Shown: positions 8,585-57,264 of the stretch, piece after piece
How the letters are laid out: every line of letters starts with the position of its first letter
Numbering within the stretch: position 1 is the first letter of the stretch
Assembly (NCBI GenBank): GCA_949358305.1
Contig: OX442314.1
Coordinates: 32,550,001-32,614,000, forward strand
Direction of reading: 5' to 3'
Origin: Strigamia acuminata
Taxonomy: Eukaryota
DNA: 64,000 bases
The notes under the pieces: model-generated
The model's input: the letters and a program-made list of their open reading frames with translations, nothing else
Told to the model about the DNA's origin: nothing
Databases searched by the model: none
Translations under genes and position numbers: made by a program

Positions 8585-9720
8585 TTTAATTTCGATACCC
8601 TTTTTATAAATATTTGGAATAAAAATTGCGAGATCGGCGGTGGCACCAAAATTTCTTTCGGTTGTGGCCGCTCCTCTCTGTCCTGATTATTCGCAGGTCC
8701 GCGGTGGTTGGCCGCTGGTGTAGCTCAGTCTTTCTCTTGCTACCTTTTTTAGATTCAGGAGGTCCGCTCAAAACAACGTCGCGTAATATAAAAGAATCGG
8801 TTGTTTTTATTTAAGCTTTTCTACTCGTATTTAATTTATTACGAAGTTTCAACGTTACTTTAAGGTTTTAATTTTTTCTAAGTTTTAGCGACGCCATCTT
8901 GGCAAACAGTTCCTTTGTCTGGGTTTGGAGATCGGAGATCTTCGGGTACGAAAATGGTTTCCGCGCCCGAGCTCCGATTCTACCGAAAATCAACAAAATA
9001 AATACAAAAAGAATTCATCAGTCAAGTTATCACGCGCCACAATCCGACATGGTGTCGGATGTCGGCGGATTACATTTTCGATCTTACGGGAAGATCTTAA
9101 CCTTATGGCGCGCATGCGGATTTCGCGGAGTGCGAAACGGACCCTATATTTAACATTACGGCGGCCTATACCTTGACCCCCTGTTCGCAGTCTCGTGGCG
9201 GATTCTGCGGATTTCACCTATTCGTACAATCCGCACGATCGCGCGTGTTTTATCATTCTTGGCAAACCGTTTTTTGAAAACGCGTTGTAACGCATCCTCA
9301 ACTTTACAAATCTCGCTTAGCGCGATCGCGCTATAACGCTTCTTCGTGTCCAACAAAAACAGCCGATTAAAAACGAAACTTCGGGTTTCGCTAAAACGCG
9401 ATTTTGATATCGGGAAGGGCACGTGACCACGTGGGTAAAAATAGAATCGAGTTTCGTGAAAACCTAATTTGGAGAAACGGCGTGGTGGTTTTGCGAAATA
9501 TGTCACATGTCACGTGATCGGACGTTGGATCTCGTACATAAACGTTCGTGCCTGGTCAAACCAGAGTCTTTAAAAAATATAAATGCATTTCCCGATCATA
9601 GGATTAATTTCGCGCCGTGTGCTCCAGTCATTAATTAGGTTATCTTCGTTGCAACTCGTCATAATAAAATTTTTACAGAAAATCAATCGTTTTGTATTTT
9701 ATTTTCATCTTCCGGGGGTC

Positions 9721-9783
9721 TCGCGCCGTCGTAGTGGACGAGAGTCTTCCCGAACACGTTCGACGGGCTTCACGAACGCTTTC
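9721..9783 (+). promoter_or_regulatory. PSE-like promoter of the ncRNA cassettes (representative copy)
   Basis: TCGC(A/G)CC(A/G)TCGTAG.CGACGCGAGT begins 62-65 nt before an A in nearly all cassettes. A second motif CGTTCGA(C/T)GG lies at about -27. No TATA box. Confidence 0.5.
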
Positions 9784-10037
9784 AGATCGAATGCGGAACT
9801 CGGGCCCGCCGCTCGGTCGAGCGGCGCAGTACCCGCCGAGTGGCGTGGTAGCCGGGTTCTCGCGTATGGCGTATGCGTCTTCACTAAAGAAACGCCTCTC
9901 TCGGTCTCAGACTGGCCTTCGGGCCGGTCAAAAAATAAATAAATAAATAAACGAGTCGGAAAATAGAACGCATCCGTCCCGGCGAATAAAAGCGGTTGGG
10001 GTCGCTGAACGGTGGCAGTGGTGGCGGCGGCAACCCC
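9784..10037 (+). ncRNA. snRNA-like cassette 1 (class A, UUCG hairpin)
   Basis: AGATCGA...TCGGTCT closing stem; internal hairpin CGCCGCTCG-GT-CGAGCGGCG; GACTGGCC-TTCG-GGCCGGTC; GGGG..CCCC end; GTCCCAAAAAATAAG at 10046. Confidence 0.55.
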
Positions 10038-10387
10038 GACGACTCGTCCCAAAAAATAAGCTCTCGTATCGGCACCCGTTCGTTTATTTAAATGTGCGCG
10101 CGGTCGCGTGCATTCTACCCGTGTCCGATGTAGCGATCGATACGGGATAAAAAAAATATCACCCGAAAAAGAAAGACGATTAAAATTTTAATTCTCCGGT
10201 CGTGGCACCGACTTTGCGGCTCGTGCTTTAACCGTTAATTAGGTTATCTTCGTCGTAATTCGTTGGAATAAAAATTTTATAGAAAATCAGCCGTTATGCA
10301 TTTTATTTTCATCTTCCGGGGGTCTCGTGCCGTCGTAGTAGGCGTTAGTTTCAATCATCGCGTTCTACGGATTTTGAGGGGATCCTC

Positions 10388-10681
10388 AGATCGAGACCAA
10401 AGTGAGAGGGCCGTCGCCCCCGTCTCGTGCGCCGCTCGATCCCCGTTTGATGACAAGATGGCATTCGCCTCTCCCACCCGAGGATCGGTCGGTGGTGCGG
10501 TATTTATGCTTGTGCTCCAAATGGGTGGTCGACAGGTCCCCAATCGGTCTCGGGCTCAGACTGGCCTTCGGGCCGGTCAAAATAACAAATAAATGAATAA
10601 ATCGGAAATAGAACGCTCCCGTCCCGGCGAGACTAGGGGCGGGTGGCGTCGTTGAGCGGCGGCAGCGGCGGCGGTAGCCCC
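10388..10681 (+). ncRNA. snRNA-like cassette 2 (class A)
   Basis: Upstream motif at 10325 (-63), distinct body, same UUCG hairpin and terminal module. Confidence 0.5.
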
Positions 10682-11041
10682 GACGACTCGCCCCGAAAAT
10701 AAGCTCCCGCACCGGCATTTCTTCGTCCGTCTAAACCTCGCAGCGCGCGTGCGGTCGCGTGCATTCTACTCGTGTCCGGTGTGGCGATCGGTACGGGGTT
10801 AAAAAAAAATATCACACGCAAAAGGAAAAACGATTAAAATTTTAATTCTTCGGTCGTGGAACCGACTTTGCGGTCCGTGCTTCAACCGTTAATTAGGTTA
10901 TCTTCGTCGCAACTCGTCGTAATAAAAATTTCACAGAAAATCAGCCGTTTCGTATTTTATTTTCATCTTCCGGGGGTCTCGCGCCGTCGTTGTGGACGGG
11001 AGTCTTCCCGAACACGTTCGATGGGTTTTGCCAACACTTTC

Positions 11042-11179
11042 AGATCGAACTCGGGACTCGGGCCCGCCGCTCGGTCGAGCGGCGCACAGTACCCGCCGAG
11101 CGGCGCGGTATTCGATACCCGTCTTTGTAAAAGCAGCCGTGCTTCTTCGGTCTCAGACTGGCCTTCGGGCCGGTCAAAA

Positions 11180-11214
<35 letters not shown>

Positions 11215-11281
11215 ATTGGCCGTAAAATTGGGGCAACTGGGGTCGCTGAGCGGCGGCGGTGGCGACAGCAACGACAGCCAC
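11042..11281 (+). ncRNA. snRNA-like cassette 3 (class A)
   Basis: Upstream motif at 10979 (-63). Shares internal hairpins with cassette 1; UUCG hairpin; 3' box at ~11290. Confidence 0.55.
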
Positions 11282-11628
11282 GACGACTCGCCCCGAAAAT
11301 AAGTTTCCGCGTCGGCATCCGTTCGTTCGTCCGTTCGTTTAAACGTGCGCGCGGTCGCGTGCATCCATGACGTGGCGATCGGTACGGAGTAAAAAAAATC
11401 ACCCGAAAAAGAAAGACGGTTAAAATTTTAATTCCCCTGTCGTAGAACTGATTTCGCGGCTCGCCTTCCAACCGTTAATCATTTTATCTTCGTCGCGACA
11501 GATTCGAATAAAAGTTTTACAAAACAACCGTCGTTTTACATTTTTAAATCATTTCCCGGGGACCATGTACCGTCGCGGTAGACGCGAGTCGCGGTCATCG
11601 CATTCGATAGACTTTGCGGACGTTCTTC

Positions 11629-11809
11629 AGATCGAGACCGGAGTACCTGTTGAGTACCAAATGGCCGGTCGGTCGTTGGTGTGGTTCCGTCTCCTAAAAT
11701 GTTCGTCGCCATTTTCTGTTGGTCGAGTCGCCTACCATCCAATGGTCGGTCGGCGGGTCTCGGTCTCAGACTGGCCTTCGGGCCGGTCAAAAAAAAAAAA
11801 AAAAATTAA

Positions 11810-11844
<35 letters not shown>

Positions 11845-11890
11845 ATGACAGTTGGGCTCGTTGAGCGGTGGCGACGGCGGCGGCAACCCC
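11629..11890 (+). ncRNA. snRNA-like cassette 4 (class A)
   Basis: AGATCGAGACC...GGTCTCGGTCT extended closing stem, unique body, UUCG hairpin, 3' box at ~11899. Confidence 0.55.
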
Positions 11891-12673
11891 GACGACTCGT
11901 CCCAAAAATAAGCTCCCACATCGACACTCATCCGTTAGTCTAAACCTCTTGACGTGCATTCTACTCGCGTCCGACAGATTCGGTTCGTTGTGGGCATAGA
12001 AAACATCCGCACACCGATACGGCATGTTTCGACGTCGATGCGCGACTGCGAAGCCGAGTCCCCGACGACGTACATACTCGCACAAGCGCGTTCGCGCGCG
12101 CGATATTGCGTGTGATGCGATGCCGATGAGCTCGACACGGTCTTTCGACGCGGGCGTCGATAATAATGTCCGGCAACGTGGATAAATGTCCGCAGAGTGC
12201 TTTGTGTTTATGGCAACGCACCGGGACGCAATTAACCAACCACTTACGAAAATTCAAAACATAATTGTTTAACAAAAGGAAACTCGTATAATGTTGAAAC
12301 AATAAAGAAAACGCAAAATTCAGATTCAAATTTAGATTTGAATTAGGTCAGATTAGGCCAGGTTGTAGATCCACAGACTCTCGAGACGACAACAAGAAAA
12401 TAAAAAGGATGCGTTTATCGTTTGTAGGTAGAATCTCGCGCCGAGTTAAATAAAAGTCTTTAAAAAATAGAAATCGATTTCCCGGTCGTAGAATTAATTT
12501 TGTGTCATGTGATCCAGTCATTAATTAGATTTTCGTGGTAGATGTTGCGTGAAACAAGATCGTGAACGTCTCAATTGGTTTACGATTTAAATTTCATCTC
12601 GCAATACACGCTGCACCAACGTAGTCGACGCGAGTTTATATCACTGCACTCGATGGGTTTTGTGAGCATTTTT

Positions 12674-12931
12674 AGACCAATCGATCGTACAGCTTGTTTG
12701 CTAGTTTCCTTTCGAGGTCAGCGGTTAACTCTTTGCATTCTATCATGCTGTTGGTTCCAACGGCGATACGCGTCTCCCGCCTGCCTCTCGGTCTCAGACT
12801 GGCCTTCGGGCCGGTCAAAAAAAAAGAAAAAAATTAATAAATAGATAAATAAGTCGGGAACAAAACGCATCCATCCCGACGAATAGTGACAGTTGGGCTC
12901 GTTGAGCGGTGGCGACGGCGGCGGCAACCCC
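12674..12931 (+). ncRNA. snRNA-like cassette 5 (class A)
   Basis: Upstream motif at 12611 (-63), unique body, UUCG hairpin, 3' box at ~12940. Confidence 0.5.
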
Positions 12932-13657
12932 GACGACTCGTCCCAAAAATAAGCTCCCACATCGACACTCATCCGTTAGTCTAAACCTCTTGACGTGCAT
13001 TCTACTCGCGTCCGACAGATTCGGTTCGTTGTGGGCATAGAAAACGTCCGCACACCGATACGGCATGTTTCGACGTCGATGCGCGACCGCGAAGCGAAGT
13101 CCCCGACGGCGTACATACTCGCACGAGCGCGTTCGCGCGCGCGATAATGCGTGTGATGCGATGCTGATGTCCGTCAACGTGGATATATGTCCACAAAGTG
13201 TCCGGTGTTTATGGCAACGCACCAGGGCGCAATTAACTACCAACGAGAATTGAAAATGTAATTGTTTAATAAAAAGAAACTCGTATAATATTGAAACGAT
13301 AATAAAAACGCAAAATTTAGATTCAAATTCAGATTCGAATTGGGTAAGATTAGGTCAGGTTAGACCCACAAACTCTGGGGGAGCGACACGAAAATGAAAA
13401 GGGCGCACCTATCGCTTATAGATGTCTGGCGATCGACAATGGGTGGACGATTAAAGTTTAAATTTCGGATCGTGGTATCGGTTTCGCGGTTCGTATTCCA
13501 ATAGTTAATCACATTATCTTTGTACCAAACGACCGATACAAAAGTTTTGTAAAATATCCGCCGTTTTATATTTTAATTTCACCTTCCGGTTGCCACGCGC
13601 TGTCGTAGTTGGTGCGAATCTCCATCAACGCATTCGACGGGCTTCGAGAGTGATTCC

Positions 13658-13827
13658 AGTAATCCAGACCAATCCTGGCCCTCGCGGAAATCCGGAGGGT
13701 TTTGGTTTTCCGCGATTGTTTTACTCACTTCTGTGGTTTTTCTACTGTATGAGTTAATAGATGTTCTTTTGAACGTCTCTCTGTACAGAATACGGGGCAG
13801 CTGGCGCCGACAAGCACCGGCAGCCCC
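13658..13827 (+). ncRNA. snRNA-like cassette 6 (class B)
   Basis: Upstream motif at 13595 (-63). 5' hairpin CCCTCGCGGAAATCCGGAGGG, variable middle, GGGGCAG...CAGCCCC hairpin, GTTCAAAAATAAG at 13837. Confidence 0.55.
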
Positions 13828-14492
13828 AAACAATTTGTTCAAAAATAAGCTTCTGCACGGGATTTCCATTTTTAACATTATGGTGTTTTTTTTTTTTATT
13901 GCCACCAAAGCGCGCTACCACCGCAAATTTTCCCGCGTTTGCCATGTACGCGCCGAAAACCACAGGCAATGAACTTTTCCACAAACTGAAAAACAAAATA
14001 TATGGGTAAGCGCACATGGGCGAATAAAACAAGATTAGCCCAATTTCGGAATTTATTGGGTCGACGTTTTGTATTCACGCGTGACGGGGGCACCACATGT
14101 GGAAAACGCGCAAATCACGCGCGAATCACGCGCGTCTACGCACATTGGAAACTTAGTATTAACGTTCGTTTCGAGTTAAATAAAAACGACGACCGTGACG
14201 AGGACCACAAAGACGGCGATAGCAGGATTCGTCGGAACAACGAGGATTGCCAACGAGAGAGACCCGTTCATTTGCCGACGCTCCATAGTTCAAACTTAAA
14301 TCGTTCTCGGACTGCCACCAGATGTCACATCAGCCGCTCACGACATACACACACTTTGGTTCGGCAGCTTATATCAAACGCGCGCGTTTCATCTTCCGTC
14401 TGATCCTCACTGCCACCTCGTGTTCGTTGGTAAGTAAGTTTGATGCTTTGTGTGATTTCTCGGTCAATGGACCACGCCCACGACCACAATCA

Positions 14493-14550
<58 letters not shown>

Positions 14551-14592
14551 ATTTATTTTCAGTTGTTTACTCGTCTCACAAACAAAAGGAAA

Positions 14593-16401: not shown

Positions 16402-16434
<33 letters not shown>

Positions 16435-18757
16435 TTATAAAAATGACAAGTCGAAAACAAGCTATTCACGGGGTTTCGCGGATTGTCGCCAGAATGCGCC
16501 ACCGCCGCGGATTTTCCAAGTTTGACATGTAGGTGTCGAATATTATGATTAACGAACTTTTCCACGTTAAAATTAAAAAAAACAAAATATACGGTTAGAC
16601 GCATATAGATAGATAAAACATGATTAATCTGGTTCCGGAATTTATTGGGTCACTTTTTAACGCGGGAAACGTCAAGTGATCGCATCGGACGAACATTTTG
16701 GTATCCATTAAAGGACACGAGTTCCACCGGGCTGCGCAGTGGTTCCGAGTAATTACATCACAGGTCGCGTGACCGGACGTTTGATCCAACACGCTAAACG
16801 TTCGTGTCTAGTTGAATAAAAGCCTTTACGATGGCGCGCCGTGCATCGCGGAATGGAATTTAAACCATAGACCAGTTTAAGCGTTCACAATCTCATTTCA
16901 CGCGACATCTATCGTGATAATCTGATTAATGGTTGGGGTACACGGTGTGACGTAATTACTCAGAATCGTCACGTTAAAAAACAAAACGAAATGGGTGGAT
17001 GGATGGGAATTTTTATTTCAGTCAGTTTTATTTACTCGCCTAAAAAAGAAAAAAAGAAAAAAAAAGAAAGAAAAAAAAAGAAAAAAAAAAAGGAAAAATG
17101 ATAACAACGAATACGACGATTGGTCGAGTGGACGGAGATACCCGCCGCGTGGAACCGTGTGCCGAGAGGATGGAGACAGACAGCCGCCATGTTTCCGGAT
17201 TATGTCACTTGGTGTCGCTCTATGCATCGATAGTGATCACGCGCGGGACAGACAACGTCGTGTTTCCATCTTCCAAAAAGTGAGTAGTTGACCGTTCTAC
17301 CGTCACATTTATCAGTCAATCGATCGACAAATTGAAAAAAAAACAACCCTCGATTACCTCTACGCCTCTCTCGACAACGTATCAATTAACACGCGCGTGC
17401 AAACACGAACGCCTGCATTGGTTCGGTCGGGCACCGCTCGCTCGCTCATTTGACAGACTCGTGACTTGAAATTTTTTATTTTTTCTTAGCCGTTATTTTA
17501 TTTTCCTTTGCATTCGACTTTAATTTAATTTCTATGTTCCAGACGATGAACAAAAACGAGAAAAACGACCACAACAACGACGGCGATGATGCAAGGTGAG
17601 AGATTCGACCGACCGGTTTCGATCGATCGTTCGTTTATCCGTTTCTTCATTTCTTTATTTCTTTGTTTATTCAGTTGTCAGCCAATTGATCCGCCCCAGT
17701 CGTCATCGTGGCAGTGGACCGAACCCGGTCACATTCGACCCATCATGCGGGTTGCGCCATTCCAGCGCGCGACTCCGGAACCGATGTAATTCGGTCAAAC
17801 GTCTCGTTTGATTTATTTATTCATTTATTTATTTATTTATTTATTTATTTATTTTTTAAGCCATCCTCGCGGACGTTCCGTACTGTTTGTTCGCTTCGCG
17901 GGCGCCCAGTTGATGGGACCGGGACGTCCGATGCCGAGGTGAGTTAATTCGATTCAACGTTTTGTTTTTGTTTTTGTTTCGTTTTGTTTCACCGATTGGT
18001 TGGTTTGATTCGAATTGATTTATTTATTTATATTTATTTTATTTTATTTTCTATTTTTTAAGTCAATCCCGCGGGCGCGCCAGGATGCTAGCGCGTTTCG
18101 CGGCCACCGAACCGATGTTGCCAGGGCGTCCGGCGTCGAGGTAATTAATTCGGTTCAACGTTTCAATTTGTCCGCCCGTCCATCAGTTTGTTCACTTAGT
18201 TTATTCAATTTGATCTCTTCCTCAGTGACCCACAACCAGGCGCGTAATCGGCGATGTGACGAGTCGATTGTGAATCTTTTTTTATTTTATTTTTCTATTT
18301 TTCGTTTTTATTTTGTAAACAATAAAAACACTCAACTTTTATCATAGAATTTGAAAAGTTTGACAATTTCTTATTAAATTTTGAATTGGAGTGTGGGGGG
18401 AGCAATGGTCGAAACGTCGTTACGGGGAACCAGATGGAAATGTTAGCGATAAAGTCGTTCAAAGTCATAAAATCGGTGTCGATTTTTACGAGGCGTTGGG
18501 GACGGTTGGAACTCGAGTCAACCAATGGACACGTCGATGCCACTCCGTTGTAAAATGCCACACACAGACACACACGTGCACGCGCGAAACATCAACAATA
18601 AAGCTCGTAAAACGACACAAATTGTCGAGTGAATAAGCGAATTGGGTTCTCCATTTCGACGATGATTGCCGGGGAGTAATTCGATCCTCCCCCTCTATCG
18701 TCGTTCGTCACCCATCGAATTTCGGTCACTGCATCCGATGGATCTACTAACACCTTC

Positions 18758-18899
18758 AGACCAACCGGGACTGATTCGAGCCCTCGCGGAAATCCGGGGG
18801 GTTTCGGTCACAAAAGTCTGCATTCGGGTTGCGCAACCACTCTATTGTTCAGCCGTTGGTCAGCCGGGGCAGTTGGCACCGACGAGCGTCGACAGTCCC
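18758..18899 (+). ncRNA. snRNA-like cassette 7 (class B)
   Basis: AGACC start, CCCTCGCGGAAATCCGGGGGG hairpin, GGGGCAG..CAGTCCC end, TTCCAAAATAAA box. Confidence 0.5.
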
Positions 18900-19753
18900 A
18901 ACAAATTCTTCCAAAATAAACTCTCACATCGACATCACAACGTTCCGCCGGTACAAACAAACAAACAGTTATGAAAAACACTTGGTTTATCTATTTATTT
19001 ATTTATTTATTTGTCCGTTCGTTTACACACACTCTCTTTGCACATGACAGATTCGGCATCTGGTCGTAGAAAATTTCAATATTTTGATGCAACACGTTCT
19101 GGTGTCAGTGCGCGATCGTGAGCGAAGTCTTCGACAATGTGCTCGCATGAGCGTGTCTTTGTTTGCCATGCACACGCGTGAACGCGTTCCCACGCGCGAT
19201 AATATGCGAGGTGCGATGTATGTAAGCGCGACATGGATTTTTGACACCGGCATCGATAATAATGTTCACCAACGTGGATAAATGTCCGAAGGTGTCCGGT
19301 GCTTATGGCAACGCACCGGGACGCAGTTAAATAGCAAGTAGAATTAAAAATATAATTGTTTAATAAAAGGAAACTCTCATAATGTTGAAACGATAAAGCA
19401 AACGCAGAATTCAGATCCAAACTCAGATTCGAATTAGGTCAGATTAGGCCAGGTTATAGATCCACAAACTCCCGAGACGCGACAAGAAAATGAAAAGGAC
19501 GCGTTTATCACTTATAGGTGCCTGGCGATCGACAACGAGCGGACGATTAAAGTTTAAATTTCGGATCTTGGAACCGGTTCCGCGGTTCGTATTCCAATGA
19601 TTAACGAGATTATCTTCGTAGCAACCGACTGGAACAAAAGTTTCGTAAAATATCCGCCGTTTCATATTTTAATTTTACCTTCCAGAGTTGACGTCCCGTC
19701 AGAGTCGACGCGAGTTCTGATCACCGCGTCCGCTGCATTTTGCGAAAGCCTTC

Positions 19754-19905
19754 AGACCGAGAGCAGAGCGAAGGGGCCGTCGCCGCTCGGTCGAGCGGCA
19801 CAGTACCCACCGAGTGGCGCGGTACCCGAGTTCTTCTGGCGCCAGTGCCTATATGTGTCACACTTGCACGCCCCTCTCGGTCTCAGACTGGCCTTCTGGT
19901 CAGTC
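19754..19905 (+). ncRNA. snRNA-like cassette 8 (class A, short)
   Basis: Upstream motif at 19691 (-63). Perfect AGACCGAGAG/CTCTCGGTCT stem; hairpin variant GACTGGCC-TTCT-GGTCAGTC; CAAAAATAAG follows directly. Confidence 0.6.
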
Positions 19906-20138
19906 ACAATAACAAATCAAAAATAAGCTACACAGCCAGTGGCGAAAACAATGCGAGGGGGACGACGTTCGACCGAATCTCTGGCAATGGCTTCCTAATC
20001 CCATCCGAATCCCATGAATCTTTCGAATCTTTCGAATCCCAAACCGATGTGTGCTTCTCTCGTGGATGCGCGCAAAGAAACGAAGAGGAAAAGAGAAAAC
20101 GCAGAGAAGAGAATGGGAAAGAATCCCTCTCTCTCTCT

Positions 20139-20621: not shown

Positions 20622-21179
20622 ATGTCGACGTCGGCCATCGAGGATCGACCACGAGGCAATATCCAGTTAATAGTGGGCCCGATGTTTGCAGGGAAAACAA
20701 CTGAACTCTTGAGGCGCCTAGAAGGAGAAGAAGCGTTGTTATTGAAGCCCAAAATCGACAACCGCCACATTCCCGGAGAAATCGTCGCTCGTGACGGAAA
20801 ATCGAGAGCGGCGCGCGCCGTCGAAAACCTCGCGGAAGCCCGAAGACAATCCGAAAATTTCGGGATTATCGGGATTGACGAGGGCCAGTTTTTCGAGGAC
20901 TTGGTACAATTCTGTCAAGAAATGGCAGAGAAAGGAAAGACTGTGGTAATCGCGGCCCTCGATGGGGATTTCAAGTTGAACCCGTTCGGTCAAGTCTGCG
21001 ATTTGCTCCCGAAATCAGAGCACATCGTGAAGCTGAAGGCAACGTGCTACCGGTGTCGAGGGGAAGCCGCGTTCACGAAGCGGACGTCGGGCGAAGAAGA
21101 CGTCGTGGTGATAGGGGGTGCCGAGAAATACGCCCCCACGTGTCGCGCGTGTTTCGCAAATTGTTCACCAATCGGCTAA
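20622..21179 (+). CDS. tk: Thymidine kinase, type II (TK1/poxvirus-like), intronless
   Basis: P-loop GPMFAGKTTEL, Walker B IGIDEGQFF, AALDGDF..PF, zinc-lasso CYRC...CRAC, VIGGAEKY. Confidence 0.96.
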   Translation: MSTSAIEDRPRGNIQLIVGPMFAGKTTELLRRLEGEEALLLKPKIDNRHIPGEIVARDGKSRAARAVENLAEARRQSENFGIIGIDEGQFFEDLVQFCQEMAEKGKTVVIAALDGDFKLNPFGQVCDLLPKSEHIVKLKATCYRCRGEAAFTKRTSGEEDVVVIGGAEKYAPTCRACFANCSPIG

Positions 21180-24167: not shown

Positions 24168-24481
24168 TAAGAGGAGACGGTTTATTCCCACTCTCGTTTG
24201 TTTGTTTGTTTGATTTAGTTTTTGTTTTGATTTTTAATTTTATTTATTCATTTATTTATTTTTTTTTTTTCAATTGTCAAAGATGTGACACAACTCTTAT
24301 GGGACAAAAACAACAATCCCCCATCTCATTGTCTCGTATTGTTTGTTCGTATTGCGTATATTTTGTTTCTCATTGTAAAAAAAAACATCTCATCGGGTGA
24401 TTAAATATACGTCTTTATTTTATTTATTTTATTTATTTATCTGTTTCTCTTCTTTTCTATATTTTAGCACAATTTATAATC

Positions 24482-24560
24482 GACCCAGAGTGGTCGAGTG
24501 GGCAGGACTACCTGCCGCATGGAGCCGTGGACTCTGGGTTCGAGTCTCGCTTCCGCGATC
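24482..24560 (+). ncRNA. tRNA-derived Pol III-like element (A and B boxes)
   Basis: TGGTCGAGTGG (A box) and GGTTCGAGTCT (B box); GACCCAGAGT/ACTCTGGGTT pairing; no clean cloverleaf. Confidence 0.5.
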
Positions 24561-25315
24561 TTACGTTTGCTTTGTGCAGAAAAAAGGAAAGAAAGAAAGA
24601 GACTGACTGACTGCTGGGCGACAATGATGATGGTATAAACTATTAGTCGTACCCTCTCGCAAGGTCCGAGAAATTCAACCCTTCTTTATTTTGTTTTAAT
24701 TTTTATCCTATCTATCTATCTATCTATCTATCTAATTTTTTTTTTTTTTAATTTAAAACAATTACCGTCAGAGTGCGTTACCGTCGGAGATTTTTTCGTG
24801 ATTGCCGTGCGCGCGAGAAAAATTGCAACCGACAAACTTTCCCACATTGAAATTGGAAAACAAAATATATGGGGAGATCCACGTAGACAAGTAAATCAAG
24901 ATTAACTTGGTTTCGGAATTTATAGGACACCTTTTAACGCGGGAAACGCAAAAATCCGCATCGAATGGACACTTTGGCGTCCATCGAAGGGCACGGCTTA
25001 CGTCGGGTGGCGTGGCGGTTCTGGGAAATTACATTACAGGCCACGTGACCAGGTACAAAGTCCTGCGCACAAACGCTCGAGCGGAGTTGAATAAAAGTCC
25101 TTGAAATATATAAATCGATTTATCGACAGTGGAACTAATTCCACGACGAGTGCCCCAACGATTAATTAGATTATCGAATTGGGTGCCGTCTGAGTCGAAG
25201 ATCGCGAACGCCCCGATCGGTTTACCATTTTAATTTCAACTCGCAGTACACGTTGCACCATCGTAGACGATGCGAGTTTGTATAATCGCGTTCGACGAGT
25301 TTGCATACACTTTGA

Positions 25316-25516
25316 ATTCGTTCGCTTCGAGCCATCATGGAGATCCGAGGGTTTCGGTCGAAATTTCCTGAATCGATTTGAAACGGTATTTCCCACCCAC
25401 GGGTGTTCTGCTCCACCACGAACATTCCGGCGACCATTGCGGCGACCATTGCGGCAACGAGCGCCTCACCTACGGTGAATGCGGGGCAGCTGGCACCGAC
25501 GAGTGTCGGCAGCCCC
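25316..25516 (+). ncRNA. snRNA-like cassette 9 (class B)
   Basis: Upstream motif at 25253 (-63); GGGGCAGCTGGCAC..GTGTCGGCAGCCCC hairpin; GTTCCAAAATAAG box. Confidence 0.55.
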
Positions 25517-26258
25517 AACAACTTGTTCCAAAATAAGCCCACAGACAGACACACCTATAAAGCGTGTTTATTTCAAATAATTGTGCAAAAACACCCATTT
25601 AATTGTTTATTTATTTGTTCCTCGTGATACGCGCGTGGCCTGTGCGTTGACGACGTGTTCGCGATTTCACGACGGAATTCGTGGATCCGTTCGTCGGGAT
25701 TGGACTTTTGGGTGTCGGGTGAAAACGACCGACCGGGGACGAAATTCGAGGCGGAGAAGGGAGAAGGGAGCAAACAAGCGCGCGCGCAAGACGCCAAATG
25801 GAGTAAAAAAATATATCCAAAGAAGATGACTAAACTTTACTTTACTTAATTTTCGAATACTACGAGCACCCGGGATTCCATACTAAGGTCGAAATGACTA
25901 AAGTCGAAATCCCGTTTCGACCTAATTCGTTTCGACCCAGGTATCCCATCTAGTCTAAAATAAAAACAAACTCGCTGTTCACTGAAATATCTATATTTAA
26001 AGTTTTTACAGTTTTTACAGTTTGCAGAATGTTATAAAAAAAAAAAAAATAAAATAAAATAAATAAATAAATAAAAATAAAAATAAAAACAAATAAACAA
26101 ATAAAACGGAATAAAACGAAACGATGAAACAACGATACATTGAAGCGACGATTATATGGTGGAATAACGCCGAAAAAGTTACGCGAAAACGACAGTTATT
26201 TATTTCTATAACATTTTTTTCCCACATTTTTTACCCCATTTACACATAGAATTGCCAT

Positions 26259-26696
26259 TTATTGACACTTGTACATTTTATCTGGATATTCGACAAAGTA
26301 CAAATTTATCCATGGAACAAATCCATACTCGAATGGGATGGTGACGCCAAGTTTATCGTCTTTGAAGAATCGATCAAACCGCGCGCAAGATATATTCGAG
26401 TCCCAGAGGAAACGCGTCCCCAAGACGAGAGTTCTTTCTTTCGTCACGACGATGAAGTTGGTTTCGGTCCCTCGATTCACCCACTCGACGTCCATCTTGA
26501 TCTGTCCAATTATTTGGAAATGGTCACCAACGATGTTTTTTAGGTACCGGTGTCTATCGTCGTCGTCGTCTAGTTCGCGGATACTGTCCCGAGGGTAGCC
26601 CGTTTCTTCGAATAAACGTTCGTCGATGGCGCAGAAGCGCGACCACTCGATTACCAGGGCATTACGCGCGAGATTCCCTATCTTCACCTTGAGCAA
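26259..26696 (-). CDS. Retropepsin-like (aspartic protease fold) protein lacking the catalytic DTG
   Basis: VKIG....NALVIEWS...I aligns to V.i.G....ALlDtGs...i, and FIVV....LVLGTRFL matches FvV....iLG.dfl of retroviral-type proteases. True start may be upstream. Confidence 0.55.
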   Translation of the reverse strand: MLKVKIGNLARNALVIEWSRFCAIDERLFEETGYPRDSIRELDDDDDRHRYLKNIVGDHFQIIGQIKMDVEWVNRGTETNFIVVTKERTLVLGTRFLWDSNISCARFDRFFKDDKLGVTIPFEYGFVPWINLYFVEYPDKMYKCQ

Positions 26697-27177
26697 GGGA
26701 TGTTCGTTCGTGGGTTCAAGCGGTTTCGGCTGAATAAGAGAAGTTTTAGATTAAAAATTATACGAAACAATTCGTATCTGTTCCTGGAATTACCTGGAAC
26801 ATGGTTCAATGTTGCGAGGAACGCCAACGAGACGCGGAGAACAGTCTTGTATCGTGTCTGAACTTGATTTGGATGCAAATGAGACACGGGTTACGTCAGA
26901 TGGCGTGGCGGCTGTGAGAAATTACGTCACACAGGCGCTCGCGCGGAGTTAAATAAAAATCCTCGAAATATAGAAATTGATTTATCGACGGTGTAACCGA
27001 TTCCACGTCGAGCGTCCCAACAATTAATTAGATTATAGAACTGGGTGTTGTCCGAAACGAAGATCGCGAACGCTCCGATCGGTTTACGATTTAAATTTCA
27101 ACTCGCGGTACACGTCGCACCATCGTAGGCGATGCGAGTTTGTATAATCGCGTTCGACGAGTTTGCAGACACTTTGA

Positions 27178-27354
27178 ATTCGTTCGCTTCGAGCCATCAT
27201 GGAGATCCGAGGGTTTCGGTCGAAATTTCCTGAATCGATTTGATACGGTTGTTCTGCTCCACCACGAACACTCCCTGGTTCGTCGAAAAACACTCCAAAG
27301 TGGGTTCGTCGGAGAACACGGGGCAGTTGGCGACCGATGCGCGCCGACAGCCCC
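27178..27354 (+). ncRNA. snRNA-like cassette 10 (class B)
   Basis: Upstream motif at 27115 (-63); promoter and 5' body near-identical to cassette 9; terminal hairpin and box. Confidence 0.55.
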
Positions 27355-27943
27355 GACAAATTGTTCCAAAATAAATCCAAGCTCCCACAACGTTGTTTTC
27401 GATACGCGCGTTCCTACACGCGATGACGCGCGTGATGCGATGCGGGTGAGTGTGACACGGGTTTTCGAATTGGGCGTCGACGGTGATGTTTGTCAACGTG
27501 GATAAACGTCCGCAAAGTGCCCGGAACGCAGTTAATTACCGACGAGAATTGAAAATGTAATCGTTTTTGATAAAAAGAAACCCTCGTAACGTTGAAACGA
27601 TAAAGAGAACGCAAAATTCGGATTCGAATTCAGGTTCGATCCGCGAACTGTCGAGGCGCGACATGCCAAGCGTGGAGGGGAGCGTTTATCGCTCATAGGT
27701 GCCCGATGATCGGAGACGGGTGGGTGATGGGTGGGTGATCGGTACCAGACAGACACAAAACAGAATAAAATCTACCCCCGTACTTCGGTCGTCACTAAGA
27801 TTACCTTCGCAGTGACCGACTAGAATAAGAGTTTTGCAAAATATCCGTCGTTTCATATTTTAATTTTGTCTTTCCGGCGTCTCGCGCCATCGCTTTCGAC
27901 GTGAGTTTGTGTCATTGCGTTCGGTGGATTTGCAAGCGCCTCT

Positions 27944-28083
27944 AGGTCGATCGAGACCAGACACGCTTACTTCAGAGTAGGGACCACTCCACCACAAACA
28001 TTCCGAGGGTATTGGCGCGCAAAAAGGACGGGGTCCTATCTTCTCGCCACGCAGAATACGGGCAGCCAGCATTGGCAGCCCCC
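27944..28083 (+). ncRNA. snRNA-like cassette 11 (class B variant)
   Basis: Upstream motif at 27882; shortened GGGCAG..CAGCCC hairpin; GTTCCAAAATAAG box. Confidence 0.5.
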
Positions 28084-45052: not shown

Positions 45053-45621
45053 TTTTCTCTTTCCTTTTTCTCAAATTATGGAAAAAGTTTGTATAATTTT
45101 ATTTTCGTTCGGTCCATTAAACTAATGCATTCGATCGATTCAGTGTGACATTTTATTAAATTTGAATAAAAGATGTGAAAAAATGGATAAAACGCAATGA
45201 TCGCGCGCGTGACCGAGCGCCTAATTGCGTGACCGTGACTATCCGCTTCCGTCACCGCTCCGGGAGGTTTTCCGATCTTGTACGACATAGTAGATGGATG
45301 TGGCGTTGGTGGAACCCTTCAAAAATTTAAAAAAAAAAAAATAAATAAATAAATAAATAAATAAATAAAATATCATAGAGAAACAAAACAGATGAGAGAT
45401 CCGTTCGTCGTTTAGTTACGACGACTGAATAAGTGGTTTAAAACGTAAATAAATTAAATAAAACCAAAAAAAAAAAAATAAGTAAATAAATAAAAGGGAT
45501 CAAATCTTTCGACCCCTCCCCCCCCTCCCACAGGCCCTGGGGAAGGGAGTATGTGTAATGGCACAAACACATCGTCTTTTTTGAATATTTATCCCGTAGA
45601 TATGAAGAAGATCGACTGAAA

Positions 45622-45703
45622 CGAAAATTCGGGAGAGTCGAGACTCGAACCCACGACCCACGACTCCGTAAGGCGGGTGACTACCCACTCGACCACCTGG
45701 GCC
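45622..45703 (-). ncRNA. tRNA-derived Pol III-like element (paralog of 24482)
   Basis: Minus strand GCCCAGGTGGTCGAGTGG...GGGTTCGAGTCTCG followed by TTTT. Confidence 0.5.
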
Positions 45704-45744
45704 GACGATAAAAGGTCGCCGTTATCGGTGTTGTTGTTTGTTGT

Positions 45745-47427: not shown

Positions 47428-47444
47428 TGCCCATTCTTATTTTA

Positions 47445-47506
<62 letters not shown>

Positions 47507-47641
47507 TATTATTGTCATCTCATCATCGCCACTGCTGCATCTATCACACGATAAATAGATAAAAAAATTGTTACATGTTCTGGTGGAAATCATAAAAGTT
47601 TATTTATTTATTGAGTTTTACAAACAAAAGAGCATAGAAAA

Positions 47642-49965
47642 TCACGGCAATCTACCGGCGCCGGCTTCGTGGAGTTGGAAACAATTGCGGTAGCGTGGGC
47701 GACATAGGTGGGTCCGGCAGGGAGCGCACCAGAAACTGCTCTCGTGGCGTTCTTTGTGGACCTCGCGACACACCACGCATCGACAACTTTTCCCCGCGCG
47801 CTCCATTCGATGGACGACGGGTCCAGTAGGTAGGGCCGCGCGCGAGGCCGTGGTCGTCGTCCTCGTCCTCTCCCGAGCCAAGAGTTGAGCGACAAGTGCC
47901 CTTCGGAATTGTAATTGCGATCGATCGCCGCGCGCGGGGGCTGTGACTTCGCGCATGTTGATTCGGGCGTTGACACACACTGCGGGGAATAAATGGAAAA
48001 CGACGAGTCGAGATTAAGATTGTAACGATAACAATAATGATAATAATCAGAGATTGGGGCCTTGATCCCACCTTGATTCAGCTTTTGAAAGAAGAAGTAT
48101 CGGTGCCAATAACTGGACCGGCGTCCGATGTGGAATGAGGAGACGAGTCGGTTCAAGACGTCTACCCAATGAAAATTTTCGATGTAGGACAGTGCGGGCG
48201 CCGGACATGCAATATCCACGTTCCTGCCACCGATACGACGCAAGACACGGCCGGCCGCTGACAGTGGGTCGACGTTCGTACTGAGCAAACTCACGGTGGT
48301 TGTGTCTCGCCACGCAGTGAGCACCAACCGACCGTTTTGTCGTTGTATGAAATCGCCTACAAAAAAAAAAAAAATGAGAGAGATAGATAGATAGATAGAA
48401 TAAAAATTAATAATTGAATGAATCAAACGCGCGTTCACGTCCGAGCAAATGCGTTACCTCTCCGGTTGCCTTGATATCGTCTGAGTGTCGAAAAATCTGA
48501 TGGCATCTGGGCCGAATTGGCCCGCAGCGTCCCCACGGCCATGGTGTTGTGGCGGGTGAAGAGGTGTTCGAATAACACGGCGGACGAAAATCGATTATCG
48601 CAGGCGATAGTGTACCCCATGCCGAGATAGTGTCTGGCCACGTATACGACGATGCGTCCGAGGACACTACCCGGATACCTAGCAAGTTTGGAGTAAAGCA
48701 ATCCGAGGTGAAATAGAAAAGACAATGAATTGACTCACTCTGGTTCCGGCTCTTCGTCCGGGTCAAAATACATCTTGGTGCGCTTACCCAAGTGCACCTC
48801 GTCGTTCAGCACGTAGCCGGTGCCCGCTTCGCACAACGTGAAAAGTTCAAATCCCCATTTGATGGGTTTGGCCGGTTGGAAGACCTGGAAGAAATTTGCC
48901 GAACGAATGAACAAATGTAGACAACTGGATGAATAAATAAATGTACGCACTTTTATCTTTGATCGACCTCGAAAGGCGATCATCGACTCGTCAATGCAGA
49001 GCGTCGTCCTTGGTTGCCGACATGCGCGGAAGCGTTTGTTGACCAGGTCGGCGAACAAGCGAACTTTCATCGCGCGGTCGTCCTGTTCGCGTTCTTTCAA
49101 AAATGACACCCTTTCCGCCGTTGTGCTGCCGCCATCGGGGCCGCGTGCAGAGCCGGTAACGTGCAACCGTTGGTAGGACGGTTGCGTGCCGTAATGAAGG
49201 TACCGCGAAATCTCCTGAAACCTCTTGTGTGTCATGGCTCGCCCAACGGCCGGTGCACCGAGATCACCGACGTTGCTGCTCGACCAGTAGTGTCGCAATT
49301 CGGGTTGTTTGTTGTAGCCGGCCAAGACGTGGATCCCTAGATATACATAAAACTCATCGAGCGTTAGAGGGCGGACCCGCGCGCGCGCCCTTGTCGCTGT
49401 CCCTCTCGGTTGTGGCGGGTGTTGCGGTCGAGACGGAAGTCGGGGCTGTCGCCCGGCGGCCAGCTCGGCTGCCCTTCTGTCGGCCGCGGTGATACACACT
49501 CTCAAAACACTGCGTTGTGGTCCGTGTGCTCCAGCGCCACTACCGCAAGCCACGGCGACCAACGTCCTTTGTCTAGTTCTCGGACCTCGTGGTCGTTGCA
49601 TCGAACGCGTCTAAAACGAAAAACATGTATATTATACGAACAATCGACCAAAAACGCGTCTGAGAACCCCCGTGAACGACGTGTGCAACGTGTGCGTCAA
49701 CTTTTCCCAACACCTGTACTCGCGTTCTTCCCACTTCTTTCTCCTGCTTCGCCTCTCTCCGGATGGCCCGGTTCGTCGCCGTCACGGTGAAGCGGGCCGC
49801 CTCGCCGAAGAGTTCCTCGAAATAGTCGAATTCCGAGCTGGTAGCCACGCATCGGCCGCGATAGCCGGGTGTTTCGCCGTCGAATCCGACGTCCTGTCGG
49901 TACCGCGTCGTCGTGGCGGCCCATACGCGCGTGTCGTTGGGCGTTTTTGGAAAACCGTCCGTCAT
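47642..49965 (-). CDS. piggyBac-superfamily (DDE_Tnp_1_7 / PGBD-like) transposase, six exons, intact
   Basis: Exons 49714-49965, 48951-49610, 48739-48884, 48458-48678, 48072-48356 and 47642-47979 total 1902 nt in frame. Motifs: YWS, RFQEISRYLH, IDESM, KPIKWG, DNRFSS, GTLRAN, WRD, WVDVLN; C-terminal CVVC..CAPC..HLC..CF..H cysteine-rich domain. Confidence 0.93.
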
Positions 49966-51104
49966 GGACCTAGGCAAAACAAAACAAAACAAAAAAACAA
50001 AAAATAAAACAAAAAAAAAGTAAAGTAAAGTAAAGTAAAGTAAAGTAAAGTAAAGTAAAGTAAAGTAAAGTAAAGTAAAGTAAAATAAGTACGGACGAAC
50101 GAGAAAATTTTGCAGTGGAAATAGCGCGGGTGGCTATTTGCATTGGTATTTCAGGGAAAATAGGATGCAGGATATTCCCACGATATGTATATGCATTATT
50201 GCGACAACATTTGGTGCACCTTTCTTCGCGATTTACCAGAGTCGGTCGAGTAGATCTTTTAACAAACCTCCGAGAAGGGTTGGACACGGGTATCTGATAA
50301 TAGGGGGTTCGGGTTTGCAAATAACGCGCGGTCATTAAATGGCGCGCGGGTTGGTGCGCGTGTGCAGCGCGGATGAACGTGATCGTTGTCACGTGCTGGG
50401 AACGTGATTAAAGGGGAAGCAATGGCACACGTGTTATCCTCCCTTCCCACTTGAAATACCGATGCGTTTTAAATTTCATCACGGGTTTAAATGGTAAATG
50501 ATGCCAATCTTCATTTAAATTTAGAGTAAAATACAAATTATGTTAGCTTTTGAATGCAACTGGTGAAAATATCTACCCACGCTATTTTCGTCAAATATTT
50601 CTCTCGAAATATCTGTGGGAGCAAGATGGTGACAATTACACCGCTTGTGGTTCCCGTCTGTGTCCGTCCGCAAACATGGCGCTCGCTCGTCGACATACCT
50701 GCTTAATTCGATGGATAGGCCGGTTGATAGACCGGTTGATTCAATTTTCTTCCTCTTTTTCTCGCTGGAAAAGTACTTGGCAGTTGACCAACTACTCGCT
50801 GCCACGCCGTCGTCGTGCGAACGCGTGTAGGATGAACCGAGGAATGATGGGAAACCACGGGGCTTTCACAAGGCTCGCGCGAACGAGAGGCGAGTATGGA
50901 AATCGGACGCGCGTGTATATAATCAACCGCGCGTGCGTGTGCAATTTTACACAACAACAATTTATGTGCTGAAAATTTTGTTAAACGCATGGATAAATAA
51001 ATAAACGAAAGAAAAACAATGCGAAACGGGGTGCGTGTTTGTTTATTCGAAACCGCAAATGAAAAATAAAAAATAGAAAAGAAAATCTGACAAACTGTGC
51101 CGTT

Positions 51105-54100: not shown

Positions 54101-54698
54101 AAACCGCGCGATAACTTCTTCGGTGCGATTCAAATCAAACAATTTGCGTTTCTACTCACCGTTCTTGTTTTTCTTGTAGTTTGTCTGCATCGGGTGCCTC
54201 GTTGTCCTCGAATAAAATAAGACTTTTGTTCAGATTCGCCCACTCGTCATCTTCTCTTGTCAAAATTTTCGTTGCCTCGGCTTCATCATTTTTGGTTGTG
54301 GTTTTCTCCAATTTGTCGCCCACTTCCATCAAAATTTGCACCTTCTCGGCACCATTCTCCGTCGAGGATCTTATCGTCTCGTCGTCCTTTTTCGTCAAAA
54401 CGCGCGTCTTCTTGACGCCTTTTTTCGTCCGATTTTTCCGGTCATCTTCGTCGTTGCTTCTTCTTTGTGTTCTCGTTTCGGAATCGCTGTCGTCGTCATC
54501 TCTGTGCTGGATATCCATCTCGTCGACCAACTGGCTATCCGAGTACACCGACACCTGACTATCTATCGGTTGACCATCTATATCCGATCTCTGGCTGTCG
54601 GTCGTATTCCATTTCTTCGTTCCCTTTAACTTCTTCCTCGCTACCTTCTGGTTTTTTTTCTTTTTCTGTTTCTCCATTTTTTTTTCCAGTCCGCACAC
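51105..54698 (-). CDS. Multi-exon protein with two C2H2-like fingers and a PHD finger
   Basis: CWLC..HWRHMH (~53490-53560); CPLC..HLRETH (~52750-52805); C-x4-C..CKSC...HEEC..CSGC PHD pattern (~51815-51953); acidic and basic tracts; GT-AG exon ends. Model approximate. Confidence 0.7.
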
Positions 54699-56844
54699 CT
54701 GTACAGAAATTCACATTTCGTCAATAAGCGTATGCGCATATCTCTCTCCTTCTATTACTATTATTATTATTATTACTATTATTATCACTATTATTGCTTT
54801 TACCGGTATTACTATTATTATTATTATTGTTATTGTCAAGTGAATAAATGAGCGAACAAATCGGTAAACAATGGCGGTTATTGTGTTACAATACGGGGTT
54901 TCCCCGCCCGTGCTCGCATCGTGTTTTCACTCGTTTATCCCCGACCGCCTGTTTAGTCGTTTGTTTGTTTCCCTGTCTATCCATCTATCTATCTATCTAT
55001 CTATCTGTCAGTCAGTCAGTCAGTCAGTCAGTCAGTCAGTCGGCTAAATTAAAATATGGTGGTCGGGGAAACCGACTATTTTCTCACCTTGCAGATAAAA
55101 CGCTCGAACGTATCGATACACACGCGTGTTTCACGAAATGGAGTGTGGCGCAATAGATAAAAATCTTTCTTCCTTTTTTTGTTGCGCGTCGTGATACCTT
55201 GACGTAACTGCGACAACGTGAATAGGTGGGGAGAGGGATTTTGGTACTGTAAGTAGTGCGAGTGTCTATTTTCAAACAAACGAGCGAGTGGAGAGACGAT
55301 TCACGCATTCACTCGACCGCCCGCCCGTGCGCGTGCGTACATTACATTAGCATGTGCACACGCGCACGGGCGGGAGACCCCGTGCATCGCCATCACTTTT
55401 TAATTTTTAACAAGCATGCGAGGTGGTCTTCATTGCGTTGTGTGAGTTTTCTGGACCAAACTCGACGTGTGTAATTGACCAATTTGTTTTATTTTCACAC
55501 AACGAACAGACGAATGAAGAAACAAACAAAGAAAGAAGCGGCATTCATTTAACACATACTTTGTCATTGTTTTGGCATTTTTGGCACGTCGAGACAGACT
55601 TAATCACGCCGTGCAGTTTCAAACTCTGTTTGGTTTTGTTTGGTTTGGGTTTTTCTTCCCCCCCCCCCTCTCCCCTACGTTTTATTTGCATCTACAAGTA
55701 TTTGCTTCTCATTAAATTACGTTTATTCATTTTCTCTTTCTTTCCAAATGGATAAACAGAAGACCTCGGCTAGACGCGTGTACCCGGCGCGTTGTTACTA
55801 CGCGCGCGACCGAAGTGACTGGCCCAGCGTCTTGACCAATTATTAATTCAAATGTTAATTTTTTATTTCGCTCTTCTTCTACCAACTGTCTTGCGCCGAG
55901 ACCGCCGGTGTAGAGGCAGTGGCATCGCGCGCGGATTTGGTCGGACAGGATTGTCGCGGCCATCCGCTTCGCGTTTATGTTGGAGGACCTAAACTCGTGG
56001 CGGTCGGTATGGTGGCGGAATCGACCACGGTGGCGGAATCGACCACGGTGGCGTGCAGGGAGATGGAGATGGAGGAGCCCCGAAACCATCCGAGAAGCTT
56101 TGCGTGCAGTGGCGGCGGCCACCTCGGTGGCCACCGCAATCGAATGCGTCGTTGGATTTGTCAATTTTTTTCTATTTTCATTCCAATTTTTACTCCAATT
56201 TTTTTATTCAATTTCTATTACAATTTTCATTCGATTTTTATTCAATTTTTGTTTCAATCTTTATTCAATTTTTATTCAGATTTTCTCTCTAATTTTCGAT
56301 TTGTTTTGTTTGTCTGTTTTGTTAAATAGAAAAATAAAATAAAATAAACAAATCTTTGGATTTTTTATGTGGGCGTGTTTGAGTGGCGGTGGAGAAAATG
56401 GGATTATCTAGACCAAAAGAGAGAACAACGTGAGCACCCTGTTTGGTTACGTAATTGCTAGGGGCCACGCACATTCCAAGAAGGAGGGTAATAAAGAAAG
56501 GTCGTGTAAAGGCGATAAAAAAGGTAGACGTTTTGTTCCGCAACATCGCCCAAACGATAGAATAAACAAGCGGACGGATGGGCAGGGAGAAGAAAAGCAC
56601 GCGCGCGATCAAACGCGGTGGGTAAAATGTCAGTTGATTCTATTAGTCAGTCCTGGTCGAGGAGCATGCTGTCTTTAACGATTGAATCGAGGATGGCACA
56701 AAGGAGATTCCGTACCTTGTGTGAGACAAGGTCTCCCATTGAAATCTGAAAATTTAAATCTGCAGTGGTGCGCCCCTGTCGGTTGAGCGAACGATTGAGA
56801 CGAGTGGTCGAGGTTATCCGCAGCAGCCAACTATTGTTTATTTT

Positions 56845-56998
56845 TTAACACACATCCATGTCTGCCCCTATTCATTGCGACGCGTCTAACCGACACATTT
56901 GGTTGGCCGGTGACTGCGCAACGCAGCGAGTCTGGGACATGAGACCAGACAGACACCGAAACCCTCCGGATCCCCGCGAAGGTCCGAAACGAACGGTT
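56845..56998 (-). ncRNA. snRNA-like cassette 15 (class B, inverted, 3' hairpin degenerate)
   Basis: Reverse-complement promoter motif starting at 57061 (-63), CCTTCGCGGGGATCCGGAGGGTTTCGG hairpin, AATAGGGGCAG. Confidence 0.45.
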
Positions 56999-57264
56999 TG
57001 GAAGTGCTCGTGAATCTGGCGAACGCGGTGATATGAATTCGCGTCATTTAGGACGATGCGACGCGCACCGAGAGATGAAATTTAAATCGTAAACCGATCG
57101 AAACGTTTACGATCTTCGTTTCACACAACACCTAATACGACAATGCAATTAATGGTTGGAGTACACGATGTGAAATTAATTTCACGAATCGGGGAATCAA
57201 TTTCTATTTTCTTCTCTCTACGTATCATTTTTATCCTGTAGTCTTTGTGCGTCTTTTCGTTTTT

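Follow-up and report, generated by a model that had tools for sequence, protein, structure and literature searches.

Sixteen paralogous cassettes, likely snRNA-type genes for folded RNAs, carried by a giant piggyBac-type element of Strigamia acuminata

The DNA analysed here is a stretch of 64,000 nucleotides from Strigamia acuminata (GenBank assembly GCA_949358305.1, contig OX442314.1, positions 32,550,001 to 32,614,000 of the forward strand), called the window in what follows and numbered from its first letter. It holds 16 cassettes and one truncated promoter copy that have an upstream module of ~230 bp in common; in the cassettes this module leads into a body that differs from copy to copy and, as a rule, ends in a hairpin and a 3' box (Table 1). 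An earlier account made from the letters alone (the sequence-only reading) had taken these units for a family of small nuclear RNA (snRNA)-type genes transcribed by RNA polymerase II (Pol II), and had missed what carries them. Their carrier is a giant piggyBac-type element of high copy number, with the cassettes as its cargo, and this identification is new. The array looks selected and is probably one of RNA genes. Architecture, folding, covariation and the 3' box sustain the snRNA-type reading, whereas published rules for the insect proximal sequence element A (PSEA) are followed only in part.

The cassette array and its promoter module

Profile searches of the window recovered 17 promoter modules, 13 3' modules, seven shared 5' hairpins and six class A bodies, with no match above 11 bits beyond the cassettes. 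The 17 hits of the upstream 230-bp profile are the 16 cassettes already noted and the truncated copy on the minus strand (16985-16817), which belonged to the training set, whose members match by construction. In the alignment homology spans about -230 to +5 with few indels, so that the shared module, which the sequence-only reading had begun at -63, extends ~230 bp upstream. Its starts and motifs were found where it had placed them, and the fixed spacing it described was borne out, the distance from motif to A being 62-64 nt in 14 of 16 cassettes. At three mismatches or fewer, no more than 5 of 16 copies fit the 25-nt consensus as it was spelled out (0.01 expected), and the motif is therefore looser than had been stated. 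In a leave-one-out matrix covering -66 to +3, 13 of the 14 core copies rank within the top 7-14 among 127,864 positions, at 17-53 bits; the copy at 18758 is weak (9 bits). Those at 28790 and 32357 fail the matrix at the A first assigned to them. For 32357 the promoter, whose disruption had been recognised earlier, scores 32 bits 19 nt further upstream, displaced by a CAAA repeat. The cassette at 28790, described as lacking a recognisable 3' end, has an uncertain start and 3' end and is probably a pseudogene. TATA is missing from -36 to -19 in 14 of 16 cassettes, as had been claimed for all; 25316 and 27178 carry TATAAT near -35.

In insect PSEAs the positions T5, C6 and C8 are near-invariant, in cores such as TCTCGC, ATCGCG and CATCGCTAG (PMC1761439). 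TCGC stands at -63 in 7 of 16 cassettes, as it does inside insect PSEA cores, and a CCATCG-like word lies at about -58 in the cassette block. In neither register do all copies follow the rule, and the likeness of the -63 block to it is suggestive and partial. A metagenome scan aimed at the host's proximal sequence element (PSE) gave 120 loci, one of them U1-like and with an unrelated promoter, and no myriapod PSE was found in passages of PMC11892584, PMC9841428, PMC4287351, PMC6431247 and PMC11530655.

Table 1. Cassettes and other features located in the window (+1, putative start; box, 3' box)
Feature	Position	Strand	Details
TTAA target site, then CCTT from 9101	9097..9100	+	likely left terminus
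Cassette 1, class A	9565..10059	+	+1 9784; closing stem, long hairpin, UUCG hairpin, A-rich linker, 3' hairpin; box 10046
Cassette 2, class A	10165..10703	+	+1 10388; box 10690
Cassette 3, class A	10820..11303	+	+1 11042; box 11290
Cassette 4, class A	11405..11912	+	+1 11629; box 11899
Cassette 5, class A mosaic	12452..12953	+	+1 12674; box 12940
Cassette 6, class B	13435..13850	+	+1 13658; shared 5' hairpin, GGGGCAG..CAGCCCC hairpin; box 13837
Truncated promoter module without body	16817..16985	-	
Cassette 7, class B, degenerate promoter	18654..18921	+	+1 18758; box 18908
Cassette 8, short class A	19531..19927	+	+1 19754; ends after tetraloop hairpin; box ~19914
Thymidine kinase open reading frame (ORF), cargo	20622..21179	+	PF00265, E 1e-52; best relatives 50%
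tRNA-like unit with Pol III A and B boxes	24473..24568	+	paralogue of 45619-45712, 74% over 97 nt
Cassette 9, class B	25093..25538	+	+1 25316; TATAAT near -35; box 25525
Retropepsin-like protease frame, cargo	26262..26750	-	Atlas score 0.95, RVP-type clusters; no Pfam match
Cassette 10, class B	26955..27376	+	+1 27178; recent paralogue of 25316; box 27363
Cassette 11, class B 3' module, own 5' body	27762..28105	+	+1 27944; box 28092
Cassette 12, probable pseudogene	28571..28910	+	upstream module intact to ~-40; start 28790 and 3' end uncertain
Cassette 13, class B	30508..30913	+	+1 30729; box 30900
Cassette 14, class B 3' module, own 5' body	31548..31989	+	+1 31768; box 31976
Cassette 15, class B	32201..32566	+	promoter displaced 19 nt by CAAA repeat; body 32357; box 32553
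Second tRNA-like Pol III-type unit	45619..45712	-	depth like neighbours
piggyBac-type transposase, several exons	47611..50133	-	PF13843 in three pieces; PDB piggyBat and piggyBac transposases matched
Cassette 16, inverted	56837..57211	-	+1 56998; shared 5' hairpin, no GGGG..CCCC hairpin; X3 contig depth 1605

Folded bodies and 3' ends

The distance from +1 to the box is 148-302 nt, where bodies of 140-295 nt had been reported before. In class A (six copies) the 5' end pairs with a CGGTCTC-type stretch and is followed by a UUCG-capped stem; in five of the six, an A-rich linker then leads on to a GC-rich hairpin and the box. Class B (eight copies) has a terminal GGGGCAG..CAGCCCC hairpin with an invariant A-A mismatch. 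The terminal GGGG..CCCC hairpin attributed to most bodies is absent from 19754, 56998 and 28790. The bodies had been called variable. They do differ, but they are mosaics of common hairpin modules rather than free variation: the cassette at 12674, for example, has a promoter closest to that of 27178, yet its 3' module is identical to that of 11629. Averaged over 105 pairs, two copies share 0.62 identity in the promoter, 0.66 in the 3' module and 0.53 in the body, against 0.47 in random windows.

That the bodies fold was confirmed by comparison with shuffled sequences, which gave z<0 for 16 of 16 bodies (mean -2.22), compared with means of -0.40 and +0.20 for the flanks and -0.43 for 60 background windows. 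Eight core pairs of the class B 3' hairpin are retained in all eight copies; one pair position is CG in five copies, UG in one and UA in two, and another is GC in seven and AU in one. As the copies are related paralogues, such counts overstate the number of independent events. An 11-nt complementarity between the 5' end of cassette 11 (27944-27965, plus strand) and the middle of cassette 16 (56945-56956) was noticed by eye; the two RNAs may pair in trans, or the match may be due to chance.

These folds could belong to DNA. The cassettes would then be repeats acting in recombination, replication or as enhancers, with inverted repeats forming cruciforms and no functional RNA, as might be suggested by the folding of the antisense strands (mean z -1.45) and by a small interrupted palindrome that overlaps the box. 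We consider this very unlikely, since the sense strand folds better in 14 of 16 bodies and tolerates G-U pairs, UUCG and GNRA-type loops are present, and the polarity of promoter, body and box is fixed.

The GC-rich bodies contain unbranched stems of 11-30 pairs. In 4 of 15 bodies such stems reach 24-30 pairs and span 70-82 nt, as might be expected if the transcripts were capped precursors from whose long stems Dicer cuts microRNAs or small interfering RNAs of the element, and Herpesvirus saimiri (HVS) does derive microRNAs from snRNA-type units (PMC4378190). A precursor role is nevertheless unlikely: 11 of 15 bodies have no stem of this length, no Rfam microRNA model matches any cassette, and the 90 nt past the box fold unremarkably (z -1.3 to +2.2), unlike the HVS chimeras of snRNA and pre-microRNA. 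Pre-microRNAs downstream of the box were rejected on the same measurement.

An AAAATAA-type box is present in 15 of 16 cassettes. The literal 3' motif of the sequence-only reading does not by itself exceed chance (8 against 4.7), whereas a hairpin-plus-box profile matches 13 cassettes, 12 of them training copies, and nothing else in the window. The human snRNA 3' box has the consensus GTTYN0-3AARRYAGA (PMC5493778). Nine of 15 cassette boxes lie within two mismatches of it, as do 1.2% of the positions drawn at random (5000) from the element; in class A the mismatches number three or four. The box reads AATAAG in 10 of 15 copies, AATAAA in four and A6 in one, with a conserved GTYCC before it. 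A start at an A after pyrimidines resembles the Pol II initiator, and the units might be ordinary Pol II genes with an initiator, a site for an element-specific upstream factor and an AAUAAR poly(A) signal, giving short long noncoding RNAs (lncRNAs). The AATAAA of four boxes and of the class A linkers would suit this, as would the partial likeness to insect PSE rules. We judge it quite unlikely, given that 10 of 15 boxes have AATAAG, which is not the poly(A) hexamer, that GTYCC is conserved ahead of the box, that the promoter module never stands before a protein gene, and that the 3' hairpin and box are retained downstream of strong internal AATAAA runs.

Internal runs of four or more T occur in 5 of 16 cassettes and argue against Pol III. 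No Sm site is common to the cassettes: the pattern that we take as the strict Sm site occurs in only 2 of 16, at +60, where it is out of place and mostly paired in the predicted folds, in agreement with the earlier remark that no clear site was seen. Nor was a known U snRNA recognised then, and covariance models of Rfam 15 gave 13 matches at E<=1, none inside a cassette and none reaching the gathering score.

Other RNA classes were considered and rejected. Box C of C/D RNAs is lacking in 16 of 16 cassettes. As to H/ACA RNAs, six of the 8 class B copies have ACA after the hairpin and class A has ACG, and an ANANNA hinge was seen by eye in 3 of 8. The arthropod telomere repeat is TTAGG, and no 6-mer of a template for it occurs in any of the 16, as would be required of a telomerase RNA. 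The splice donor site of a spliced leader RNA is missing in 15 of 15, and no ORF is common to the cassettes that could specify small peptides.

The carrier element and its other cargo

A TTAA target followed by a CCYT terminus is the rule for piggyBac elements (PMC5601938), and both are found at the likely left end. One contig of sequencing run X3 has its start precisely at 9097, which is what a meeting of many different flanks at this point would produce, and another keeps to the flanking repeat as far as 9099 before departing from it. Contig structure and depth change at 9097-9104, which is likely the left end of an element inserted within another repeat. The superfamily pattern is seen at the left end only, with no right terminal inverted repeat within the window. 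The observed/expected ratio of CpG is 1.5-1.6 right of 9100 and 0.95 in the host part, a composition that suggests that the element continues beyond 64000. Its length is at least 48 kb and probably over 55 kb.

Contig depth, for which runs X1, X2 and X3 were used, is only a rough guide to copy number. Element contigs stand at 1,050-2,060 in X3 (~37-43 for apparently single-copy contigs) and at 12,000-20,000 in X2 (~100-112), and in X1 many read 25,000, an apparent ceiling (~240), so that element depth is tens to more than 100 times that of the host. From 43100 to 57600, over the transposase, a tRNA-like unit and cassette 16, depth is flat and the variant sites listed number 91 in 14.5 kb, as befits a young, homogeneous, amplified element. 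Depth, compared up to 14400 and from 43100 on, supports a single unit from 9101 to at least 57600. Run X6 reaches hardly any of the two stretches compared, their host genes among them, and so bears on expression neither way. The ratio of a neighbouring gag-like repeat to host is ~30-40 in all three runs, whereas that of the element changes several-fold from run to run; differences among individuals or libraries, or episomal replication, may lie behind this.

An independent high-copy miniature inverted-repeat transposable element (MITE) or Helitron nested in the element would show a depth of its own. Summed depth over 10081-11040 at 80% likeness is in fact anomalous, mostly in X3 (27,545-60,758 against ~1,500-2,500 in the flanks); cross-mapping and simple repeats may explain this excess. 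Single cassette-bearing X3 contigs stand at 1605, 1750 and 1763, compared with 1091-2064 elsewhere in the element, and since the cassettes thus have the depth of the element around them, this reading fails. The limits of the paralogous blocks are also ragged, at ~60-800 bp, as from segmental duplication, and neither terminal repeats nor a CTRR end were seen, which leaves a nested MITE or Helitron extremely unlikely. Positions 12307 and 13305 are joined in X3 contigs, and X3 contigs hold two body segments missing from the window, which suggests that the array varies between individuals or continues outside it. Some X3 joints, among them 12600-13682, whose depth of 1605 is that of the cassette 16 contig, probably stem from cross-mapping between paralogues and were not taken for rearrangements.

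The aspartates of the DES, DNRF and VD motifs of the transposase are presumably the catalytic DDD. A small group of transposases from metagenome or run contigs (P0242-P0256; 36-60% over the stretches matched) lies well above other piggyBacs and may mark related giant elements; the closest clusters stand at 40-54% over stretches, and the ten of them looked up are short contigs. Neither tRNA-like unit has a full cloverleaf, and ARAGORN found no gene; with the A and B boxes that we assign to them, the two could be genes of the element for RNAs like the adenovirus virus-associated (VA) RNAs. Cys/His zinc-finger-like, intron-split genes lie at 14590-17280, 33280-33460, 39880-40400 and 51780-53590, one with a PHD-like exon (PF00628, E 2e-4), and possibly represent chromatin-reader cargo. 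Four alike two-exon genes (23489-24164, 29049-29828, 44233-44893 and 58568-59641) encode acidic coiled-coil proteins with no Pfam family at cut-off, and an ORF at 37873-38937 with a 45/39-nt tandem repeat encodes an acidic repeat protein. Between cassettes, 30303-30395 is a fragment of HSP90 (PF00183, E 5e-5), captured from the host. Tandem arrays of imperfect palindromes with 56/34-nt and 542-nt periods lie at 61150-64000; they are partly homologous, inverted, to 60034-60210 and in our view recall the origin-like repeat regions of large DNA viruses.

The first 4.8 kb of the window are host DNA with a short SRPK-like kinase, whose best full-length matches are Strigamia maritima paralogues at 50-54%. 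A 940-residue ORF without a Pfam match (5762-8584, minus strand) lies in a repeat at ~30-40 times host depth in the three runs, and 4800-5760 has a depth far above that of this repeat.

No viral core gene of Teratorn type (polymerase, capsid or terminase) was found in the 145 of 510 frames scanned. Viral contigs gave no match to three cassette patterns or to the transposase, and a search for relatives with the longer proteins also gave none. No title in the literature covered, from which subscription papers are mostly absent, describes a transposon with arrays of snRNA-type RNAs or an element of this kind, and the carrier, which is of piggyBac type, intron-rich, ~50 kb or longer and equipped with a thymidine kinase, appears to be undescribed there.

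Candidate RNA products and related systems

A fixed upstream block, a start at A, a terminal hairpin and a 3' box make up the layout that couples initiation by SNAPc to cleavage by Integrator (PMC5493778). From their sequence we think it somewhat better than even that the cassettes are genes of this type, for predicted capped, non-polyadenylated RNAs. Host SNAPc would bind the block from -63 to -39, Pol II would start at the A following a pyrimidine run, and Integrator would cleave just upstream of the box, to leave a folded RNA of 150-300 nt with these properties. Unequal recombination among the units would reshuffle the hairpin modules while promoter and 3' end stayed constant, and so give rise to a repertoire.

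Several observations weigh against such genes. The cassettes are related paralogues and not statistically independent, and paralogues inherit their flanks by descent, so that upstream likeness alone is no proof of a promoter. Copies that satisfy the insect T5-C6-C8 rule (PMC1761439) number only 7 of 16 at -63 and 3 of 16 when read in the -55 register, the distance to the downstream motif differs from insect PSEB spacing, and two copies have TATAAT. AATAAA is found in four boxes and inside five class A bodies. In the common 5' hairpin changes are one-sided only, none of its 11 pairs being changed on both sides, and 12% of the 60 background windows also reach z<-2.

The cellular Pol II snRNA genes (U1-U5, U7, U11, U12 and U3) resemble the cassettes in their elements near -60 and -25, start at A, 3' hairpin and 3' box. 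In the cassettes, however, it is the bodies that diverge and the promoter and 3' module that are conserved, which is the reverse of snRNA families, and Rfam has no match. Closer in setting are the seven Herpesvirus saimiri U RNAs (HSUR1-7), units with an snRNA promoter and a 3' box processed by Integrator (PMC4378190): there too a genetic parasite has several snRNA-type units, as predicted here. HSURs are U-rich and bind Sm, whereas the cassettes are GC-rich modular mosaics, 16 in number, without a shared Sm site, and reside in an arthropod piggyBac-type element. By this analogy the cassette RNAs would be made like HSURs yet fall outside the HSUR family.

The same snRNA-type genes could act by base-pairing, each body targeting a host microRNA or mRNA as HSUR1 does miR-27. 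Variable bodies within a constant frame, the HSUR precedent (PMC4378190) and the body segments that X3 contigs hold in addition would all be in keeping with guides. The variable parts are, however, mostly predicted to be paired, a common Sm site is lacking, and complementarity to the rest of the window shows little excess (12 13-mers against 6.1+-3.4 and two 14-mers against 1.4; of the 34 12-mers, against 20+-4, many come from GGC repeats). Guides of this kind seem doubtful. A structure maintained under a drifting sequence is a better fit to protein decoys than to guides.

As decoys, the GC-rich stems would occupy Dicer, Argonaute or other defence proteins that bind double-stranded RNA, in the manner of adenovirus VA RNAs, which inhibit PKR and are Dicer substrates (PMC4378190). 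The VA RNAs, the Epstein-Barr virus-encoded RNAs and the tRNA-microRNA units of murine gammaherpesvirus 68 are likewise short, highly structured RNAs of parasites, and the element has its two tRNA-like A/B-box units besides; but theirs are made by Pol III and have U runs at the end, whereas the cassettes have upstream promoters, 3' boxes and, in 5 of 16, internal T4 runs. In the motif-dependent piRNA minigenes of C. elegans, which co-opt SNAPc and Integrator for precursors of 27-40 nt (PMC7917550), a constant upstream motif also precedes a variable body. Those minigenes serve host defence; the cassette bodies are longer (148-302 nt), folded and borne by a mobile element.

Among the functions that these analogies offer, decoys against host small-RNA silencing are a tentative choice. 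For the statement as a whole, that the 16 paralogous cassettes are likely snRNA-type Pol II genes and their predicted folded RNAs most likely silencing decoys, we put the chances at about even.

Teratorn, a piggyBac element fused with a herpesvirus in medaka, with 30-40 copies per haploid genome (PMC5601938), is the nearest parallel to the carrier: it too is a giant element with a piggyBac transposase, a CCYT end and a TTAA target, and the X3 depth ratio is similar. It differs in its herpesvirus core genes, of which the frames scanned here showed none, and in that the right end of the present element lies beyond the window; the word 'non-coding' does not occur in the main text on Teratorn (PMC5601938). 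It is conceivable, though we would not expect it, that the present element is a possibly virus-derived one of a myriapod whose fast-evolving, modular, non-Sm RNA repertoire, made by the snRNA machinery of the host and reshuffled between individuals, counters silencing; this would be the first such case among animal transposons, and the RNAs would form a class of their own that is new.

Parasite RNAs of snRNA type have so far been known from a few primate herpesviruses. If the present reading is true, transposons can use SNAPc and Integrator to make regulatory RNAs of their own, and the question of how very large elements evade small-RNA silencing would have an answer that can be tested.

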